Shown here: in pieces, positions 9,272-25,336 of the stretch
How positions within the stretch are numbered: position 1 is the stretch's first letter
Layout of the letters: each line of letters starts with the position of its first letter
Assembly: GCA_017609145.1 (NCBI GenBank)
Contig: JAFCEM010000002.1
Coordinates: 1 to 35,583, forward strand
DNA: 35,583 nucleotides
Direction of reading: 5' to 3'
Origin: Candidatus Aenigmatarchaeota archaeon
Lineage (GTDB): Archaea > Aenigmatarchaeota > Aenigmatarchaeia > QMZP01
Notes under the pieces: model-generated
Seen by the model: the letters and a program-made list of their open reading frames with translations, nothing else
What the model was told of the DNA's origin: nothing
The model's database searches: none
Program-made: the position numbers and the translations under genes

Positions 9272-11920
9272 ATGGTTGAGTTTCAGTTACTTGATGTAGA
9301 TTATGTTAATGTTAATGGAAAACCAATCATAAGGATTTTCGGCAAGACCGAGGATGGAGAAAGCGTCTGTGCCTTTTATGAGAACTTTGTTCCATATTTT
9401 TATGCGGAAGATGGTGCAGACAGGGTTCTTGAGGGCGAACCACAGGTGATAGAAATGGAGAGGGTCACCAAAAAAATGGTGATGGGCTATAACGTGACCA
9501 AGCAGCTTTACAAAATAAAAATAAAGGATCCCTCGAAGACCCCGGAACTTCGTGAAAGGCTGTCCGCCAGCGGAATAAAGACATATGAAGCGGACATACT
9601 CTTCAAGTATCGCTTTTTGACTGACCTTGATATGCAATGCCTTGGGTGGATAAGAACGAACGTGGATAATGGCGCGGCAACGAATACCGTCTCTGTTGAT
9701 AAGAAAATAGAGCTCAAGGATATGGAAAAGTTGGATAAGGAAAAGGATGCCCCGCTAAAAATTATGGCATTTGACATAGAATGTATAGCTATGGAAGCCG
9801 GGAATGTACCGGATTCAAAGACGGATCCCATAATTCTAATATCAGTAGTATTCAGTGAACCATACAAGGGCCAGAAATCAATGGTTCTGGGCACCAGAAC
9901 TGGTAGGGGAGTTAATCCCTACACATCGGAAAAGGAAATGCTTGAGGGTTTTGTTAATATAATAAATGAATACGACCCGGATATAATAACCGGTTACAAT
10001 GTTAACAATTTTGATATACCTTATGTTGTTGAAAGAATGAGACAAAATAAGGTAAAGCCGGTTTTTGGAAGATGCAATGAAAAACAAGTTATGGCCAGAA
10101 AGATTGGAAATAGATACAAGGTATCGATATCTGGCAGGATCATTGTTGACAGTTTTGAGTTGGTGAAAAAAGATTTTTCTCTGAAAAGATACGGGCTTGA
10201 TTACGTGTCACAGAATCTGCTTAACGAAAAAAAGGTTGATGTAAAGCACTCGGAGATTGAAAGGTTATGGAAGGGTAGTACGGAAGAGTTTGAAAAATTG
10301 GTGAATTATTCCAGGGTTGATTCGGTGCTTGCAATGAATCTTGTACAGAAACTTAACTTAATTGATAAATACGTAGCTCTTTCAAAGATATCAGGCACCC
10401 TGTTACAGGATACGCTCAATATGGGTGAAACAACACGCATAGAGAATTTCCTTCTCAGAGAATTCAACAGACGCGGTTATGTATATTCCGGCAGACCTAA
10501 CCAAAGCGAGGTTTCGAGAAGGGAGAAGAACAGGAGAAAGGAACTGAAGGGTGGATTCGTCCTGGAGCCCGAGAAAGGCCTGCACTCATCTGTGCTTGTT
10601 CTTGACTTCAAGAGCATGTATCCTTCAATAATAAGAAGTTTCAACATATGTCCCACGACCCTTTTAACGAACGAGTCCCAAGAGCCGCCTGAGGATGTAA
10701 TAACAACCGTAGCGGGCACGAAATTCGTTTCAAAAAATGTTAAGGAAGGCATTATACCTCATGTGCTTGAAAAACTAATGAAGAAGAGGCAGGAGACCAA
10801 GCGCGCCCTGAAGAAAGAAAAGGATCCTGCAAAGAAAAAGAGTCTTCATGCGCGCCAATGGGCACTCAAAATACTGGCGAACGCCTTTTACGGGCATATG
10901 GGATATGTGAGGGCAAAAATATACAACTTGGATATAGCTAATACCATAACATCCAGCGGCAGGGATATAATACACAAAACAAAAACAGAGATCGAAAAGA
11001 AATATGGATATAAGGTTGTTTATGGTGATACGGATTCTGTAATGGTTAAAGTTGATAATGAAACTGACATGCAGAAAATCAGACAAATCGGTACAGAGAT
11101 ATCAAAACATATTACAGAAAAACTGCCGGGATACCTTGAACTTGAGTTTGAAAAGTTCTTTAAGCAGTTCCTTCCCTTAACCAAGAAAAGATATGTTGCA
11201 TGGAAATTTGAGCCTGATGGTGATGGCTGGCAGGAAGGTATAGAAATGAAGGGGATAGAAACCGTGAGAAGGGACTGGTGTGACTTGGTATCTGAGACGC
11301 TCAGTGAGATTATAGAGATTATACTGAAGAAGGGTGATGTAAAAGGAGCTTTGGAATATTTCAAATCCGTGATCAAGAACCTTATGCGAAACAAAATTCC
11401 TACGGAAAAACTGGTCATAACAAAGACCATAACCAAGGCGCCTGGCAAGTATGAAGGTATACAACCACATATAGAAGCGGCAAAAAAAATTACAGCAAGG
11501 AATCCCAACGAAGCGCCTGGTATAGGCGACAGGATTGGCTATGTGATAATCAAAGGCACTGACATGCTTTCAAAGAGGGCGGAAGACCCGACCTTTGTCG
11601 CTGAAAGGGGGATTGAAATTGATCCAAAGTATTACATAGAGAATCAGTTGCTGCCTCCTATGGAAAGGATATTTTCTGTTCTCAGCATATCCAAGTCCGA
11701 GCTTCTCGGGAACGGGAAGCAAATGGGGCTCATGGAAGCCATCAATAATTACAACGAAACCAATCATATAAAGGTGCTCCCACGAACTGAGACCAATGGT
11801 TTTATATGCACCAAGTGCAGCAAATTCTATCCAAGGATACCTCTCGTAGGCACATGTGAATGTGGAGGGGAGCTTGCTTTTTCATCACCCAAAGGCATGG
11901 TCAAACAGGTCACATTATGA
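9272..11920 (+). CDS. polB: Family B DNA polymerase with an extra C-terminal Cys4 zinc ribbon
   Basis: Exo I FDIE, Exo II NVNNFDIPY, Exo III YSRVDS. Pol A DFKSMYPSI, Pol B KILANAFYG, Pol C YGDTDS, and KKRY. A further ~55 aa follow the usual archaeal PolB end and contain CTKC-x12-CEC. Confidence 0.95.
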   Translation: MVEFQLLDVDYVNVNGKPIIRIFGKTEDGESVCAFYENFVPYFYAEDGADRVLEGEPQVIEMERVTKKMVMGYNVTKQLYKIKIKDPSKTPELRERLSASGIKTYEADILFKYRFLTDLDMQCLGWIRTNVDNGAATNTVSVDKKIELKDMEKLDKEKDAPLKIMAFDIECIAMEAGNVPDSKTDPIILISVVFSEPYKGQKSMVLGTRTGRGVNPYTSEKEMLEGFVNIINEYDPDIITGYNVNNFDIPYVVERMRQNKVKPVFGRCNEKQVMARKIGNRYKVSISGRIIVDSFELVKKDFSLKRYGLDYVSQNLLNEKKVDVKHSEIERLWKGSTEEFEKLVNYSRVDSVLAMNLVQKLNLIDKYVALSKISGTLLQDTLNMGETTRIENFLLREFNRRGYVYSGRPNQSEVSRREKNRRKELKGGFVLEPEKGLHSSVLVLDFKSMYPSIIRSFNICPTTLLTNESQEPPEDVITTVAGTKFVSKNVKEGIIPHVLEKLMKKRQETKRALKKEKDPAKKKSLHARQWALKILANAFYGHMGYVRAKIYNLDIANTITSSGRDIIHKTKTEIEKKYGYKVVYGDTDSVMVKVDNETDMQKIRQIGTEISKHITEKLPGYLELEFEKFFKQFLPLTKKRYVAWKFEPDGDGWQEGIEMKGIETVRRDWCDLVSETLSEIIEIILKKGDVKGALEYFKSVIKNLMRNKIPTEKLVITKTITKAPGKYEGIQPHIEAAKKITARNPNEAPGIGDRIGYVIIKGTDMLSKRAEDPTFVAERGIEIDPKYYIENQLLPPMERIFSVLSISKSELLGNGKQMGLMEAINNYNETNHIKVLPRTETNGFICTKCSKFYPRIPLVGTCECGGELAFSSPKGMVKQVTL

Positions 11921-11964
11921 ACTTCATGTGCATTCCGGTTAAGCTGGAATGAAAGACATGGTTT

Positions 11965-12064
11965 TTCCACACGCAACCAGGGGGTGTTTCCACATGAAAT
12001 GTGTTACTTCACAGCAAATTCATTTCAGTATCATGCGAGCTTCTCCACATGAAATAAAGGGGTG
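11965..12064 (+). repeat. Cluster of three direct ORB-like (origin recognition box-like) elements
   Basis: TTCCACACGCAACCAGGGGGTG (11965-11986), TTTCCACATGAAAT (11987-12000) and TCTCCACATGAAATAAAGGGGTG (12042-12064). The 12-mer TCCACATGAAAT is identical at 11989-12000 and 12044-12055. Two elements carry a G-string, as canonical ORBs do. Confidence 0.45.
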
Positions 12065-12099
12065 TTAGGTGTGTGATATTCATATTACTTAATATTGCT

Positions 12100-13325: not shown

Positions 13326-14288
13326 TTACCTAATTTTTTGGAATTTGGTTTCGTGTGACCAGAGATTCACCAGAGCTGTGGTTTCCCTGTCGCAGGATAT
13401 TATATTCACACCCTTGTAGTTCTCGTTCCATGTATTCTTCTGCAGCAACCAGAACACGGTTGGAATGGGGTTTATAAGATGTGGGTCATTGGGAGGACGT
13501 ATTTCATTTTTGTTTGGAGAAAGATGCCTCTTTCTGAGCCAGGAGATTGCCTTTTCCGGCGTGGCATCTTCAGTAGGGGAATAGAATAGTATATTTATTT
13601 TCGTGGTTTTCTTTGAGATGCCTATCCAGCATGGGTTATGGGGACAGGTTATTATCCTCCTGGACTTCTTGCTTGGTGTGGCCGGAGTAATTATAAAACC
13701 CACACTACCCATGGCCTCAATCTCCTGTGTCAGTTGTGCTGTAAGAATGATATTGATATCAATTCTTTCAGGTTTGTTGCTAAGGGGCACATCAGGCAGT
13801 ACTACTTCCCTTGCAAACATCTTCCCTTCTTTCACAGAACCGGTGAGTCCTATCACATCATCAACCGCAACATGGTTGGTATTTTCGCCTTGTAGTATGA
13901 CAGGAATCTCTCCTGTAGGGTCTTCCAATATCATACCGCTGGGGGTTAGCTCCCTGACCATTCCTATAACAGAAATCTCTGAGAAAGCAGACTTTGCATT
14001 GTTTATTGAAACCGCATTGAGCTTGGCTGACAACATTTCCTTGATGGTGTTGTATCTGGTCTTGTAATAATCAGTAAAATCCTGAACCCCCAGCTTGTTT
14101 TTTGTTTTGGTTTTTGTAACGCGTGCCGAAGGGGCGGATTCGTCGGTTTTGGTGAATACAATCTCATCCGACTGCCCTGCGCTATGTAGGAGCTGTCGCA
14201 TCCTGTCTTCATTCAGGTTTTCAACAAGCTCGGGAGAGAGCAACACACCGGATTTCAGAAGCAGCCTGAGCATTTCCTTCTTGTCCAT
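13326..14288 (-). CDS. DNA polymerase II (PolD) small subunit DP1-like protein, shortened and lacking phosphodiesterase motifs
   Basis: DP1-like N-terminal helical region (MDKKEMLRLLLKSGVLLSPELV). OB-fold core ISVIGMVRELTPSGMILEDPTGEIPVIL...VIGLTGSVKEGKMFAREVVLPDVPL. Conserved late motif WLRKRHLSP. No DxH, GDxxD, GNHD or GHxH motifs. The start at ATG 14288 is preferred over 14321 because a TATA-like TTAAATTTTTT on the coding (minus) strand lies about 20-30 nt upstream of it. Confidence 0.65.
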   Translation of the reverse strand: MDKKEMLRLLLKSGVLLSPELVENLNEDRMRQLLHSAGQSDEIVFTKTDESAPSARVTKTKTKNKLGVQDFTDYYKTRYNTIKEMLSAKLNAVSINNAKSAFSEISVIGMVRELTPSGMILEDPTGEIPVILQGENTNHVAVDDVIGLTGSVKEGKMFAREVVLPDVPLSNKPERIDINIILTAQLTQEIEAMGSVGFIITPATPSKKSRRIITCPHNPCWIGISKKTTKINILFYSPTEDATPEKAISWLRKRHLSPNKNEIRPPNDPHLINPIPTVFWLLQKNTWNENYKGVNIISCDRETTALVNLWSHETKFQKIR

Positions 14289-14348: not shown

Positions 14349-15551
14349 CTAAAAGAGGGAGCGCTCCTGTAGTATTTTCTTGATCCTGCCTGTTATTGCT
14401 TTGTTTGAGGGTATTGTTATCTCCCTCGTTCTCCCGTACCTGCCCCTAGATATCACCCTTGCATTGATTACACCAAGCATGTCAAGTTCGGCCACAAGGT
14501 CTGATATCCTTCTTTGTGTGAGCGGCCTTATGGCACACTGTCTGCATATCTTTTCATAATACACGAAAACGTCTCCGGTCTGTATGTTCTGGTGGCCGTC
14601 TTCAGTAAGCTTGATTATGGCTGATAACACAGACTGTGACTGTCTTGGCTGGCTCTTAACTATTTCTTCAACCCTGTCCATATCCAGCCGTTCCTCTGCC
14701 ATGTCAATATACTCGGTTCCTATCTTGAGTGCCCCGGACCTTTCCGCAATCTCACCAGCTATCCTCAGAAGGTCAAGCGCGCGGCGGGCGTCGCCGTGCT
14801 CCTGCGCGGCAAGGGCAGAACACTTAGATAAAACCCCCTCTTCAAGCACATTCTCGTTGAAGGCATCCAGTGCCCGCTCCCCGAGTATGTCCTTTAGTTG
14901 GTTTGCGTTGTAGGGGGAGAATATTATCTCTTCTTCCGACAGCGAGGACTTGACCCTGGGGTCGATATCGTTCATGAAGGTTGTGTTGTTGGATATGCCT
15001 ATAATCGATAGTTTGGCGTTCTTGAGTTCCTGGTTTATTCTCGTAAGATTGTAGAGAATCTCGTCCCCGGCCTTTTCGATAAGGACATCAATCTCATCGA
15101 GCACGAGTATCACACTCTGTTTTCTGGAATCAAGCGCATTGAAGAACATGTTATAGATGTGGTCGGTTGGCAGGCCGGTTGGTGGGACGAAAAGCCCAAG
15201 TTTTCGTGTGAGTTCGGCAAGCAGCCTGTATTCAGTGTCCGACACCTTCTTCATCTTGCAGTTTACATAAAGTATCCTGACGTTTTCTGATGCCTTTTCG
15301 AGCTCTGACGCAACATACTTCATCGATACACTCTTGCCTGTGCCAACAGTGCCGAATAGGAACATATTGGACGTCTTCTCCCCCCTGAGGCTCGGTGCGA
15401 GCGTCTCCGCTATCTGTTTTATCTCCCTCTCACGGTGAAGAATGTGGTCAGGCATATAGTGGTCTGTCAGGCTTTCCTTGTTCCTGAATATGCTCTTCCT
15501 TTCAATATACTGCTTAAATATTTGATTTAGATTGAGCTGAGTTGCTGGCAT
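14349..15551 (-). CDS. cdc6: Orc1/Cdc6 replication initiator
   Basis: AAA+ Walker A FGTVGTGKS, Walker B VLDEID, sensor regions and a C-terminal winged helix (ISDLVAELDMLGVINARVISRGRYGRT). Confidence 0.95.
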   Translation of the reverse strand: MPATQLNLNQIFKQYIERKSIFRNKESLTDHYMPDHILHREREIKQIAETLAPSLRGEKTSNMFLFGTVGTGKSVSMKYVASELEKASENVRILYVNCKMKKVSDTEYRLLAELTRKLGLFVPPTGLPTDHIYNMFFNALDSRKQSVILVLDEIDVLIEKAGDEILYNLTRINQELKNAKLSIIGISNNTTFMNDIDPRVKSSLSEEEIIFSPYNANQLKDILGERALDAFNENVLEEGVLSKCSALAAQEHGDARRALDLLRIAGEIAERSGALKIGTEYIDMAEERLDMDRVEEIVKSQPRQSQSVLSAIIKLTEDGHQNIQTGDVFVYYEKICRQCAIRPLTQRRISDLVAELDMLGVINARVISRGRYGRTREITIPSNKAITGRIKKILQERSLF

Positions 15552-15584: not shown

Positions 15585-15775
15585 TCCAAACAATTTCATG
15601 TGCAGTTCATATGGATAGCAGACCACCCCACAGTTTCTCATGGAAACAGCACACAACAACAAACATTCGAAAAGAAAAACAACTATAACATTGTTATATT
15701 ATAATTAATAAAATTATTTTATTTTATTAAGCAATTCCACAGGAAATCATGGTGTGGTGTTCCAGTAGTTCCGAA
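15585..15775. other. Probable chromosomal replication origin (oriC): inverted ORB-like boxes flanking an AT-rich unwinding element
   Basis: Minus-oriented CACATGAAAT (15593-15602) and TTTCCATGAGAAACTGTGGGGTGG (15623-15646). A near-pure AT tract at 15691-15730 has one G in 40 nt. Plus-oriented TTCCACAGGAAATCATGGTGTGGTG (15735-15759) and TTCCAGTAGTTCC (15760-15772). The region lies immediately upstream of cdc6. Confidence 0.6.
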
Positions 15776-16061: not shown

Positions 16062-16745
16062 ATGAAAATGATTGTATTCGCTGATGTGCATGGGGACTTT
16101 GACACCCTGTCCTCTGTACTTGAGAAAATTAGCAAGAACGATGTTGAAGAGGCAGACCTTGTTGTGTGCCCAGGTGATTTTACGGATATGTTCTCAACAC
16201 CTGAGGAATTTTCTCAGATGGATATAGCTGATATGGTTCTCCAGCGACTGATGTCTCTGGGCAAGCCCCTACTCTGCATCCCCGGAAACCATGACCCCTA
16301 TGAAATTCTCAATGAATTTGATGAGTTTGGTGTGAACCTTCACAACAAAACCAAAACAATAAACAACATAAAATTCGTCGGTTGGGGTGGTGCCGCAACC
16401 CCCTTTGATACCATCTTCGAGCCGCCCGAGCCTGAGACAAAAGAAGCCCTTGAAACACTTGGTGAGGGGATTGATTCCAAATTCGTGCTCATCATCCACA
16501 ATCCACCAAAGGATACGAAAGTGGATATGGTGAGCTCCGGGGAGCACGTCGGCTCCCAGGCCATAAGAGATTTCGTTGCAGAGAAGCAGCCGATTCTCGC
16601 AGTGTCTGCACATATACACGAAGCCACGGGTACTGATAAACTTGGAAAAACAACACTATTCAATCCAGGACCTGTTTTTAACAGGCAGTACGGTGTTGTC
16701 GAGATAAAAGGGAACAATGTAAATTGTAGAATAAAAAAAGTTTAG
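16062..16745 (+). CDS. Calcineurin-like metallophosphoesterase
   Basis: All five motifs are present: ADVHGD, PGDFTD, GNHD, HNPP and SAHIHE. Confidence 0.85.
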   Translation: MKMIVFADVHGDFDTLSSVLEKISKNDVEEADLVVCPGDFTDMFSTPEEFSQMDIADMVLQRLMSLGKPLLCIPGNHDPYEILNEFDEFGVNLHNKTKTINNIKFVGWGGAATPFDTIFEPPEPETKEALETLGEGIDSKFVLIIHNPPKDTKVDMVSSGEHVGSQAIRDFVAEKQPILAVSAHIHEATGTDKLGKTTLFNPGPVFNRQYGVVEIKGNNVNCRIKKV

Positions 16746-17479
16746 TGGTCCAGTTTTTGGAGGTTTTCCACTATCTTATCAACACTATCGAATCTGCACA
16801 CTGTAAGTGGTATGCCCTCTGCATCAGCTATCCTTTTGGCAATCTCATCAACCATATTGAGCCCGTGAAGCACAATAATTGGTGGATGAAGATTGGTAAC
16901 CTTCACGGCGACCATCGGTGTTTTCCCTGTAGATACCTTTGTAAATATCATGGCCCTTTGTGTTGTCATCCCATAGAGTTTGATGAGCTCCGAAAATGAA
17001 AGCTCTGTTATGGCTTTGAGGGAGTCGATTATAGTGTAACCATATATCTTCTGATTAAGCTTCTGGTTGTTTTTCGTGACAAATGTAGCATTTATTTGCT
17101 TGCAGAAATCGTAAATACTGATACCGGAAGAGAATTCCTTAATATCGATTATAGCATTGGAAAGTGGTCTGGAAGAGGAATCGTGCTTCACAAAGGTCTT
17201 TATCACATTACCTCCCCTTTTCATGTCTATGGAGATGAGTGTGTTGATGTACTTTTTGATTACCTTGATGCCGGGTGACTTTCTCCTCCCAGACTCGTAA
17301 TCGGAAACAACTGAAGATGTTATACCGAGCTCGTTTGCCAGGTTTTTCTGTGATATCTTGAATATATTTCTCCATTTCTTTATGACCTTTTCCGGACTGT
17401 CCGATGTTACTATCTCACCTGCTATATCCCTCACAAGTTTATCCTTCGCAATAGAATTTTCGTCAGTTAACTCATCCAT
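16742..17479 (-). CDS. XRE-type HTH transcriptional regulator (archaeal conserved family)
   Basis: HTH segment ISQKNLANELGITSSVVSDYESGRR followed by a ~150 aa C-terminal domain. Confidence 0.65.
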   Translation of the reverse strand: MDELTDENSIAKDKLVRDIAGEIVTSDSPEKVIKKWRNIFKISQKNLANELGITSSVVSDYESGRRKSPGIKVIKKYINTLISIDMKRGGNVIKTFVKHDSSSRPLSNAIIDIKEFSSGISIYDFCKQINATFVTKNNQKLNQKIYGYTIIDSLKAITELSFSELIKLYGMTTQRAMIFTKVSTGKTPMVAVKVTNLHPPIIVLHGLNMVDEIAKRIADAEGIPLTVCRFDSVDKIVENLQKLDH

Positions 17480-17535
17480 ATTCGGTAATTAACTTATATG
17501 TATTTAAATTTATTCCAAATCCCTATATTATAACC

Positions 17536-17919
17536 ATGAAAAACACCACAGCCAAGGGCGCGAGGTTTGAGCGCGATATCCTGCATTTTCTCAATGGCAA
17601 GGGATTCAGCTGCATGAGGGCACCCTCGTCAGGGAACTGGTTATCACCTGTTGATGTTGTTGCAATAAAAAGAGGGAGCGTGCTTGCAATAGAGTGTAAG
17701 AACCATTCAAAGAAACCAAAACTCAATCAAAAAAGCATGCAGAAGTTCAGGGAATGGTGCGACCGCGCAGGCGCAACCGGGCTTCTCGCATGGCAGGTGC
17801 CTGGCACGGGCTCAGGCGCCAGCTGGAAGTTCCTGCGGCTGGAAGACGCGGAGAACAACAGATACGAGGATGAGAACTGGTTTGATATACAGGTCTTCAT
17901 GAAGGTTTTTTGCGTCTAA
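17536..17919 (+). CDS. hjc: Holliday junction resolvase Hjc
   Basis: KGARFERDILHFLNGKGFSCMRAPSSG...VDVVAIKRGSVLAIECK, which is the E...D...E-x-K nuclease signature of archaeal Hjc. The size fits (127 aa). Confidence 0.8.
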   Translation: MKNTTAKGARFERDILHFLNGKGFSCMRAPSSGNWLSPVDVVAIKRGSVLAIECKNHSKKPKLNQKSMQKFREWCDRAGATGLLAWQVPGTGSGASWKFLRLEDAENNRYEDENWFDIQVFMKVFCV

Positions 17920-24179: not shown

Positions 24180-24896
24180 ATGACATGGATTAACGATGTA
24201 ATGAAAAGAACATTTCACTACAAACCCCCGGTGCTTGGGGGAAGATCGGAAAAGCTCGGCAAAGTGAGCTTTGATGACCTTGTCTTTGTTCCTGCACAGT
24301 TGCACAGAAGACCAGTTGATTATTTCAGGGAAAACATAAACACCAAAACCGTAATAGGAAAGAAAAGCAAGAAGCCGCTTGTTTTGAATATGCCAATATT
24401 TGTGGCTGCCATGAGTTTCGGGGCTCTCAGTAAAGAGGCAAAGATTGCGCTTGCAAAGGCCAGCTCCTCTGTCGGTACGGCTACAAACACTGGTGAAGGC
24501 GGCATGCTTCGAGAGGAACGCAATAACGCAAAGCTGCTCATAGCCCAGTACTCAACAGGAAGATTTGGTGTTGACAAAAAATATATACAGAATGCTGATG
24601 CTATTGAAATTAAGATAGGCCAGGGCGCAAAGCCCGGCCAAGGCGGACTGTTACCAAAAGAAAAGGTCACAGCAGATATAATGAAAGCAAGGAATGTTAA
24701 GGAACCAAAGGATCTTCATTCTCCGTGCGCGCACCCGGACATACATACCATAAACGATCTCAGAAAAAAGGTTTCGTGGCTGAAAAAATTGTCTGGAGGA
24801 AAGCCAATAATAATAAAGCTGGGTGCCGGTAATGTTGAAAAGGACGTGGCTGCTGCCCTAAAGGCAGGTCCGGATGCAATAGCCTTGGAGAGATAA
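24180..24896 (+). CDS. Glutamate synthase domain-2-like FMN oxidoreductase, N-terminal fragment
   Basis: MPIFVAAMSFGALSKEAKIALAKA...NTGEGG...KIGQGAKPGQGGLLP, which are typical GltB FMN-domain motifs. The ORF ends at a TAA inside the conserved core. Confidence 0.75.
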   Translation: MTWINDVMKRTFHYKPPVLGGRSEKLGKVSFDDLVFVPAQLHRRPVDYFRENINTKTVIGKKSKKPLVLNMPIFVAAMSFGALSKEAKIALAKASSSVGTATNTGEGGMLREERNNAKLLIAQYSTGRFGVDKKYIQNADAIEIKIGQGAKPGQGGLLPKEKVTADIMKARNVKEPKDLHSPCAHPDIHTINDLRKKVSWLKKLSGGKPIIIKLGAGNVEKDVAAALKAGPDAIALER

Positions 24897-25336
24897 TGCT
24901 GAATGACTTTGGCATTCCCACACTATCTGCCATAGTCAGGGCGAGAAAAACACTCGACAAACTCGGTGCAAAACAGGAGTTGCTTGTGGGCGGCGGTCTC
25001 AACAAAGGCAGTGATATCGCCAAGGCCCTTGCATTGGGTGCTGATGCCGTGTTCATGGGCTTTGCCCTGCTTGTTGCAATGGGGTGCATGTATTGCAGAC
25101 AGTGCTTCAGGGGAACCTGCCCCAAGGGCATAACAACACAGACACCAAGGCTCAGGAAGAATCTTCATATCAACAAGGCAGCAAAATCCATAAGTAATTT
25201 TCTGAACTGTTGCAACGAAGAGGTAAAAATGGCAGCGGCGGCAACAGGAAAATGTGATGTCCATAAACTTGATAGACATGACCTGAGAGCAAAGAATATA
25301 AACACATCAAAGATAACGGGCGTTGAGCTTGTATAA
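24896..25336 (+). CDS. Glutamate synthase domain-2-like FMN oxidoreductase, C-terminal fragment
   Basis: FGIPTL...LLVGGGLNKGSDIAKALALGADAV...GCMYCRQCFRGTCPKGITTQ continues the same family in another frame. The ATG overlaps the upstream TAA (TAATG). Confidence 0.7.
   Translation: MLNDFGIPTLSAIVRARKTLDKLGAKQELLVGGGLNKGSDIAKALALGADAVFMGFALLVAMGCMYCRQCFRGTCPKGITTQTPRLRKNLHINKAAKSISNFLNCCNEEVKMAAAATGKCDVHKLDRHDLRAKNINTSKITGVELV

Follow-up and report, generated by a model that had tools for sequence, protein, structure and literature searches.

The DNA analysed here is a 35.6-kb stretch from a Candidatus Aenigmatarchaeota archaeon (contig JAFCEM010000002.1; hereafter the window). It carries a gene for a family-B DNA polymerase (PolB) whose product runs past the usual end of archaeal PolBs into a cysteine-rich tail. 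An open reading frame (ORF) 1.4 kb from the PolB gene encodes a relative of DP1, the partner of the large subunit DP2 in the archaeal polymerase PolD, and an Orc1/Cdc6 gene (cdc6) stands directly upstream of it; boxes resembling the origin recognition box (ORB) lie on both sides of this pair (Table 1). The PolB tail is homologous to Zn-III, the DP1-docking finger of the PolD large subunit.

The original prediction, made from the letters of the window, took the PolB for an active-looking enzyme with intact exonuclease and polymerase motifs, and the comparison with its relatives bears this out. In the Pfam scan, residues 103-312 match DNA_pol_B_exo1 and residues 379-802 match DNA_pol_B. The exonuclease motifs (ExoI FDIE167, ExoII NVNNFDIPY243 and ExoIII YSRVD346) and the polymerase motifs (motif A D445..SMYPS, motif B KILANAFYG533, motif C YGDTDS584 and KKRY638) fall in invariant columns of an alignment of 76 homologues. 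The best match in the Protein Data Bank (PDB) is human Pol delta (E 3.8e-118), marginally ahead of the PolBs of Thermococcales, and the nearest database relative is 68% identical. The 120 best homologues (54-68% identity) are nearly all of about 880 residues, and almost all the named ones are assigned to Candidatus Aenigmatarchaeota. An AlphaFold2 (AF2) model of the full-length protein has a mean predicted local distance difference test score (pLDDT) of 87.4. Some relatives are much longer (P0093, P0167, P0169, P0171, P0183 and P0188, of 1261-1728 residues) and have the finger at their extreme C-terminus; P0093 contains intein and LAGLIDADG domains, and the other five are probably intein-bearing as well.

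The alignments with the Tgo, Pfu and KOD polymerases stop at residues 819-824 of the window protein, which correspond to residues 764-770 of chains that are 773-775 residues long. This agrees with the earlier assignment of the usual PolB end to the GKQMGLMEAIN region and leaves some 55 residues beyond the canonical end. The box QMGLMEAI, which resembles a PCNA-interacting peptide (PIP), adjoins the end of the Tgo alignment; it is internal in the window protein and has no aromatic residues, and G813, G815 and Q817 around it are invariant in the 76 homologues. Located between the thumb domain and the linker, it is predicted to bind PCNA. The linker that follows is likely flexible. In the AF2 model the pLDDT drops below 50 at residues 815-824 and 828-832, making 815-832 the low-confidence linker region, and a helix is drawn at 817-829 with low confidence. 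Save for this helix, the tail of about 55 residues is modelled as short beta strands, which make up a small beta-rich module at residues 835-881 with a pLDDT of 70-86.

The motif of the module is C846-x2-C849-x12-C862-x-C864, followed by GG, and its cysteine codons lie at nucleotides 11807-09, 11816-18, 11855-57 and 11861-63. The extension, its CxxC-x12-CxC pattern and the interval 11807-11863 had been read correctly in the original prediction. The exact 19-residue spacing of the cysteines is kept in 119 of the 120 PolB homologues, the one exception being a deletion, so the tail is not confined to one sequence. We then scanned GTDB, one genome per species, with the C-terminal alignment of the PolB as the query. 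This C-terminus was present in 122 genomes, and the records that carry the tail are almost all from Candidatus Aenigmatarchaeota. Among the best 80 of the 122 genomes, 79 loci were inspected; all 79 have the tail, 77 with CxxC-x12-CxC and two (L080 and L085) with CxxC-x12-CxxC, the spacing known from the DP2 of Thermococcales. The invariant tail columns are G, C, C, P, L, G, C, C and G, within the consensus GF-C-x-K-C-x-K-F-Y-x-R-x-P-L-x-G-x-C-E-C-G-G-x3-F-S-S. The four cysteines are predicted to bind zinc. A tail that arose by read-through of a mutated stop codon or by misassembly is ruled out by this conservation. The wider suspicion, that the extension is either such an artefact or an ordinary zinc ribbon with a chance likeness to DP2, could draw on the small size of the module and on weak matches to unrelated zinc fingers at E >0.03; set against its presence in the homologues and in every locus inspected, and against a similarity to DP2 that is significant in three independent libraries, it is vanishingly improbable. 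The tail occurs only in a clade reported to lack DP2, its cysteines are conserved, and it is no product of read-through.

The similarity to DP2 is specific. A 66-residue tail sequence matched two DP2 models of NCBIfam, TIGR00354 at E 4.9e-6 (positions 1013-1049 of 1096) and NF003103 at E 6.3e-6 (positions 1041-1077 of 1125), in both cases near the C-terminal end of the model. A profile built from 50 PolB tails and searched against all PDB sequences found the DP2 of T. kodakarensis (E 7e-8 to residues 1129-1164 of 6knb_B) and that of P. abyssi (E 4e-6 to 6hms_B and 6t8h_B). DP2 was the only significant hit in this search, with the next match at E 0.04, and the matched segment of 6knb_B is Zn-III. 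Searched against 1.84 billion representative proteins, the same profile returned 117 matches. Many of these were fragments of little length, and a few were unrelated proteins that lack the motif; among the longer matches there were two classes: PolBs, in which the motif lies 18-25 residues from the C-terminal end, and proteins of DP2 size without a PolB core, in which it lies about 62 residues from the end; three of the latter, scanned with Pfam, were DP2. We had considered the CxC of the tail as a one-residue deletion, relative to the CxxC of DP2, that would be specific to PolB. This was rejected, since many DP2s have CxC as well.

Besides the cysteines, the best-conserved residues of the tail are R855, P857, L858 and G860. 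They lie in the knuckle loop K851-G860 (nucleotides 11822-11851) and align with the loop by which DP2 docks on DP1. In comparison with the KxRRxP docking loop, the ribbon and R-x-P-L-x-G are conserved, whereas the lysine and the first arginine are not. In PolD, this Zn-III loop, with R1131 and R1132, lies in an electronegative groove of DP1, where the OB domain meets the phosphodiesterase domain (Raia et al. 2019, PMC6355029), and the same paper cites the binding of a 20-residue Zn-III peptide to DP1 at nanomolar strength. The original prediction had likened the tail to the cysteine modules of both DP2 and the eukaryotic polymerases and had called for a comparison of the last 60 residues with each. 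Half of the likeness stood. The comparison with DP2 Zn-III was significant, while eukaryotic C-terminal domains (CTDs) went undetected in Pfam and in the PDB, and with one Cys4 module and no helical bundle the tail is not of the CysA+CysB type.

The conserved loop also bears on another role for the tail, namely that it contacts DNA instead of tethering the DP1-like protein. Zn-III and its adjacent strands do border the nascent duplex in PolD, and mutants of the Zn-III cysteines impair PolD activity (Raia et al. 2019, PMC6355029); in the AF2 model of the window protein, moreover, the tail is carried by a flexible linker after the thumb domain. The helices of clamp-1 and most of its basic residues are, however, absent from the tail, the residues that are conserved are those of the DP1-docking loop, and neither the tight linkage of the PolB and DP1-like genes described below nor the yeast two-hybrid interaction reported in PMC12680538 favours DNA contact. 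We consider this role unlikely.

The neighbouring protein was identified as DP1-derived by several routes. Its ORF has no match in Pfam, Metallophos included. It matches the NCBIfam DP1 model NF003118 (E 3.4e-25) and DP1 chains of the PDB (E 7.9e-6 when the sequence is used by itself and 1.5e-17 when a family profile is used). The family alignment comprises 20 homologues of 270-351 residues, almost all of which begin at the position of M12 of the window ORF. The profile made from it matches DP1 only, over the OB fold together with the final portion of the phosphodiesterase domain. The AF2 model (pLDDT 87.4, predicted template modelling score 0.77) begins with a helical domain, continues with an OB fold and ends in a phosphodiesterase-like domain of the calcineurin type, which is shortened. 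In a Foldseek search with this model the top 44 matches were all DP1 or eukaryotic B subunits, each with a probability of 1.00; the latter were B subunits of Pol delta, epsilon, alpha and zeta (p50, p59, p70, Pol31 and Dpb2). The metal ligands have been lost. The GHVH motif of DP1 is replaced, and the middle of the phosphodiesterase domain, about 170 residues in DP1, is reduced to about 70. We found no conserved set of His, Asp or Asn ligands past residue 180, where the sole conserved D/E/H/N column is N301, and one member has a single His in its entire sequence. From the DP1/B-subunit fold and the absent metal ligands it follows that the protein is a DP1-derived, B-subunit-like protein, predicted to be catalytically dead. 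The dead DP1 homologue that had been postulated 1.4 kb from PolB is therefore confirmed by the NF003118, PDB and Foldseek matches together with the missing ligands. An intact phosphoesterase is encoded near this DP1, whose own phosphoesterase is lost: a 227-residue calcineurin-like metallophosphoesterase (PF00149, PF14582) at 16062-16745 (+), just across the candidate origin from cdc6. L002 has a gene like it in the corresponding place (16891-17559), and in L001 another is found at the contig end, about 7 kb past cdc6.

The two genes travel together. Loci from GTDB were counted as informative where 4 kb or more follows the PolB gene; in 56 of these 58 the DP1-like gene is within 10 kb of PolB. 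It lies 0.2-6.5 kb downstream in 52 of the 58, convergent with PolB in 50 of these 52, and in four it is upstream on the same strand, about 1-2 kb from the inferred PolB start. The upstream position marks a divergent subgroup (L063, L080, L083 and L084; also L082 and L085), whose same-strand order of DP1-like gene and PolB recalls the DP1-DP2 gene pair. The order NAC (leftward), PolB (rightward), TctA (leftward, not in every case), DP1-like (leftward) and Cdc6 (leftward) recurs in three metagenomic contigs, L001-L003. The arrangement of cdc6 and the DP1-like gene is present in these contigs too, and the two genes probably form one operon. In L002 a 116-residue OB-fold gene (PF01336; 14161-14511) stands between TctA and the DP1-like gene. 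Scans of the proteins of the 35.6-kb window revealed no DP2 gene; both the loss of DP2 in the phylum and the two-hybrid binding are taken from the literature.

On this basis we propose, with a probability of about 0.8, that PolB and the DP1-derived B subunit form a replicative polymerase that replaces PolD and is joined through the DP2-derived finger. The catalytic subunit would comprise a complete PolB, the PCNA-box-like motif, a flexible linker of about 20 residues and a ribbon of about 40 residues that appears to have descended from Zn-III. Much as Zn-III in PolD inserts its basic loop into the DP1 groove that is bordered by the OB domain and the phosphodiesterase domain, the PolB finger would most likely dock on the shortened, dead DP1 homologue from the neighbouring cdc6 operon. 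The resulting two-subunit enzyme would take the place of PolD, with the exonuclease domain of PolB presumably responsible for proofreading, and the B-like subunit probably connects the polymerase to other parts of the replisome. That the cysteine module serves as a tether for a DP1 or B subunit, the dead DP1 nearby being the candidate, was the central idea of the original prediction, and it gains support from the Zn-III match, the fold of the neighbour and the linkage in 56 of 58 loci.

Several observations weigh against this proposal. The tail has no sequence match to a eukaryotic PolB CTD in the Pfam scan or the PDB profile search, and it is without the DP2 helices alpha1' and alpha3', which also contact DP1. 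The first arginine of the RR pair of DP2 is not conserved in the PolB tails. The CTD of Aenigmatarchaeota has been termed 'degenerate', with a different predicted structure (PMC12680538). Finally, since the partner has only a much smaller phosphodiesterase-like domain, the groove between it and the OB fold may differ from that of DP1. The finger might recruit another component of the replisome, such as the primase subunit PriL, GINS or PCNA, instead of the DP1-like protein. An interaction between the DP2 CTD and primase was described for the Heimdallarchaeal primase, with a similar observation in T. kodakarensis cited (PMC12680538), but the CTD of the Baldrarchaeial PolB3 gave no two-hybrid signal with canonical archaeal primase in the same study. 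Such recruitment would also leave unexplained both the conserved linkage of PolB with the DP1-like gene and the retention of a dead DP1 after the loss of DP2, and we hold it to be very unlikely. Docking on the DP1-like protein remains our preferred interpretation.

The arrangement of PolB, Zn-III finger and dead DP1 is real and has already been published for Aenigmatarchaeota. Kazlauskas et al. (2020, NAR, PMC7544198) described the PolB group 'B6-aenigma1' in Aenigmarchaeota, reported that DP2 is absent from most Aenigmarchaeota, named a group of inactive DP1 proteins 'Aenigma_GB_GCA_002789635-like' and proposed that the arrangement mirrors the origin of the eukaryotic polymerases. More recently, Aenigmatarchaeota and Baldrarchaeia were identified as the only archaeal lineages without DP2 but with DP1, and an interaction of DP1 with the PolB-DP2CTD fusion, examined by AlphaFold3 prediction and by the yeast two-hybrid method, was reported for both (2025, Nat Ecol Evol, PMC12680538). 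B6-aenigma1 is an Aenigmatarchaeota PolB of about 880 residues with one C-terminal Cys4 motif closest to DP2 Zn-III and an inactive DP1 alongside; the window protein fits every feature that could be compared, with no substantive difference. By these shared features, rather than by identity of accession, the window PolB appears to be of the B6-aenigma1 type, and the taxonomy of its homologues suggests its placement in group B6; B6-aenigma1 as described is related to the Delta-like clade/group B6. Because the description of 2020 and the two-hybrid test of 2025 came first, the window adds only one more member; what we contribute is quantitative support for conservation and gene linkage over about 80 species genomes.

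Comparison with the related systems is instructive. The DP2 CTD (6T8H/6HMS, 6KNB) has the same pattern, F-x-C-x-K-C-x3-Y-x-R-x-P-L-x-G-x-C-x(1-2)-C-G-G followed by a beta strand, includes CxC spacing in many members and docks on DP1 within PolD. The window finger differs in sitting on a family-B core, whereas the core of DP2 is a double-psi beta-barrel; it has no flanking helices and only 18 residues after the last cysteine, as against about 62 in DP2. The window tail is not a DP2 CTD proper, because the flanking helices are missing and the catalytic core is a different one. Eukaryotic Pol alpha, delta, epsilon and zeta follow the same logic, in which a PolB core bears a metal finger at its C-terminus and is partnered by a B subunit that derives from DP1 and has been inactivated; their CysB/Zn-2 corresponds to DP2 Zn-III. 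In their CTDs a helical bundle has CysA at one end and CysB at the other, whereas the window tail has one Cys4 module and no bundle, which places the window enzyme outside the eukaryotic CTD family. The phosphodiesterase-like domain of the window partner is also much smaller than that of the eukaryotic B subunits. By analogy, the window enzyme most likely works like both the eukaryotic and the DP2 CTD systems. The Baldrarchaeial PolB3-DP2CTD (formerly 'B6-aenigma2') likewise has a DP2-derived CTD on a PolB, has lost DP2 and has kept DP1; its CTD is full-length and resembles those of DP2 and eukaryotes, whereas that of Aenigmatarchaeota is a short form (PMC12680538). A 1014-residue PolB that we encountered (P0229) is 41% identical to the window core and continues for 60 residues after its Zn-III-type motif, as in DP2; it may represent the long DP2-like form seen in Baldrarchaeia, or 'B6-aenigma2'. 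With its PolB core, DP2-derived finger and dead DP1-derived subunit, the architecture shows, in an archaeon living today, the kind of chimera that makes up the eukaryotic replicative polymerases, and it bears on the origin of the eukaryotic replisome.

Table 1. Features of the window, and virus-like PolBs with a similar finger on other contigs
Feature	Position	Strand	Remarks
PolB gene	9272..11920	+	882 aa; Aenigmatarchaeota, apparently 'B6-aenigma1' type; exonuclease and polymerase domains active-looking
PIP-like box (Q817-MGLMEAI-824)	11720..11743	+	Site of the C-terminal PCNA-binding box in canonical archaeal PolB
Variable linker (N825-N842)	11744..11797	+	Length and sequence differ among homologues
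Zinc ribbon (G843-L882)	11798..11917	+	Homologous to DP2 Zn-III; putative ligands C846, C849, C862, C864
Three ORB-like boxes	11964..12065	+	Cluster directly 3' of the PolB stop codon
DP1/B-subunit homologue	13326..14288	-	ORF to 14321, 331 aa; likely start M12 at 14288
Orc1/Cdc6 gene	14349..15551	-	Pfam Cdc6_C, Cdc6_lid, AAA
Candidate replication origin	15593..15760	.	Inverted ORB-like boxes at 15634 (-) and 15735 (+)
P0182	L004 2317-4707		Virus-like PolB with Zn-III-type finger
P0231	L005 3355-5694		Virus-like PolB with Zn-III-type finger
P0187	L086 807-3158		Virus-like PolB with Zn-III-type finger
P0230	L087 2242-4584		Virus-like PolB with Zn-III-type finger

ORB-like boxes were located by pattern search. 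The core TTCCANNNGAAA occurs in the window at 11988, 15634 and 15735, and the inverted pair formed by the last two flanks an AT-rich stretch at 15690-15733; the segment holding this pair is a candidate oriC next to the cdc6 and DP1-like genes. Direct repeats upstream of cdc6 were uninformative. Across the related loci (L001-L003 and L006-L085) the core was counted 256 times in 1.22 Mb, as compared with about 9 expected, and some of the cores are followed by a GGGGT string. Over 79 loci, 68 cores lie within 250 nucleotides 3' of the PolB stop codon; at least one is found within 800 nucleotides of the stop in 42 of 71 loci, and cores occur just beyond cdc6 in 40 of 42. The ORB clusters thus flank the cdc6 and DP1-like region on both sides. 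Their position, directly downstream of the PolB gene at one end and past cdc6 at the other, may be new, and they are worth pursuing, as are the virus-like PolBs that carry the finger.

These PolBs (P0182, P0187, P0230 and P0231) belong to a different clade, being 24-29% identical to the window core, and end in a CxxC-x12-CxC-GG finger with a loop of the RRPPL or RRPSL type, the YRRPPL-type loop thus being intact. The best PHROG family of P0182 and P0231, the two that were scanned, is phrog_262. All four contigs are short and filled with small same-strand ORFs; genes of nucleotide metabolism are present on L004 (ThyX, UDG and a Cas4-like nuclease), and on L086 the PolB gene is preceded by a ThyA-like gene. 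They look viral or mobile, and none of these short contigs has a DP1-like gene. Scans of IMG/VR with P0182 and with two back-translated tail patterns found nothing, and a tblastn search of deposited phage genomes with P0182 returned only T4-like and halovirus PolBs of about 25% identity, none of which covered the tail. In the literature searched we found no description of virus-encoded PolB-Zn-III fusions, and the presence of the finger on virus-like PolBs of another clade may be new. A tentative and rather doubtful extension of these observations is that the Zn-III finger is a mobile module with which viruses or mobile elements plug their own PolB onto the DP1 of the host, and that the Aenigmatarchaeota enzyme could descend from such an element, a descent on which Kazlauskas et al. 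(PMC7544198) had speculated.

Elsewhere in the window two ORFs that adjoin each other, 24180-24896 and 24896-25336 (+), share a domain of the glutamate-synthase type (PF01645), covering positions 51-234 and 251-367 of the profile. A frameshift, an error in the sequence or a gene that is truly in two parts could account for the division.

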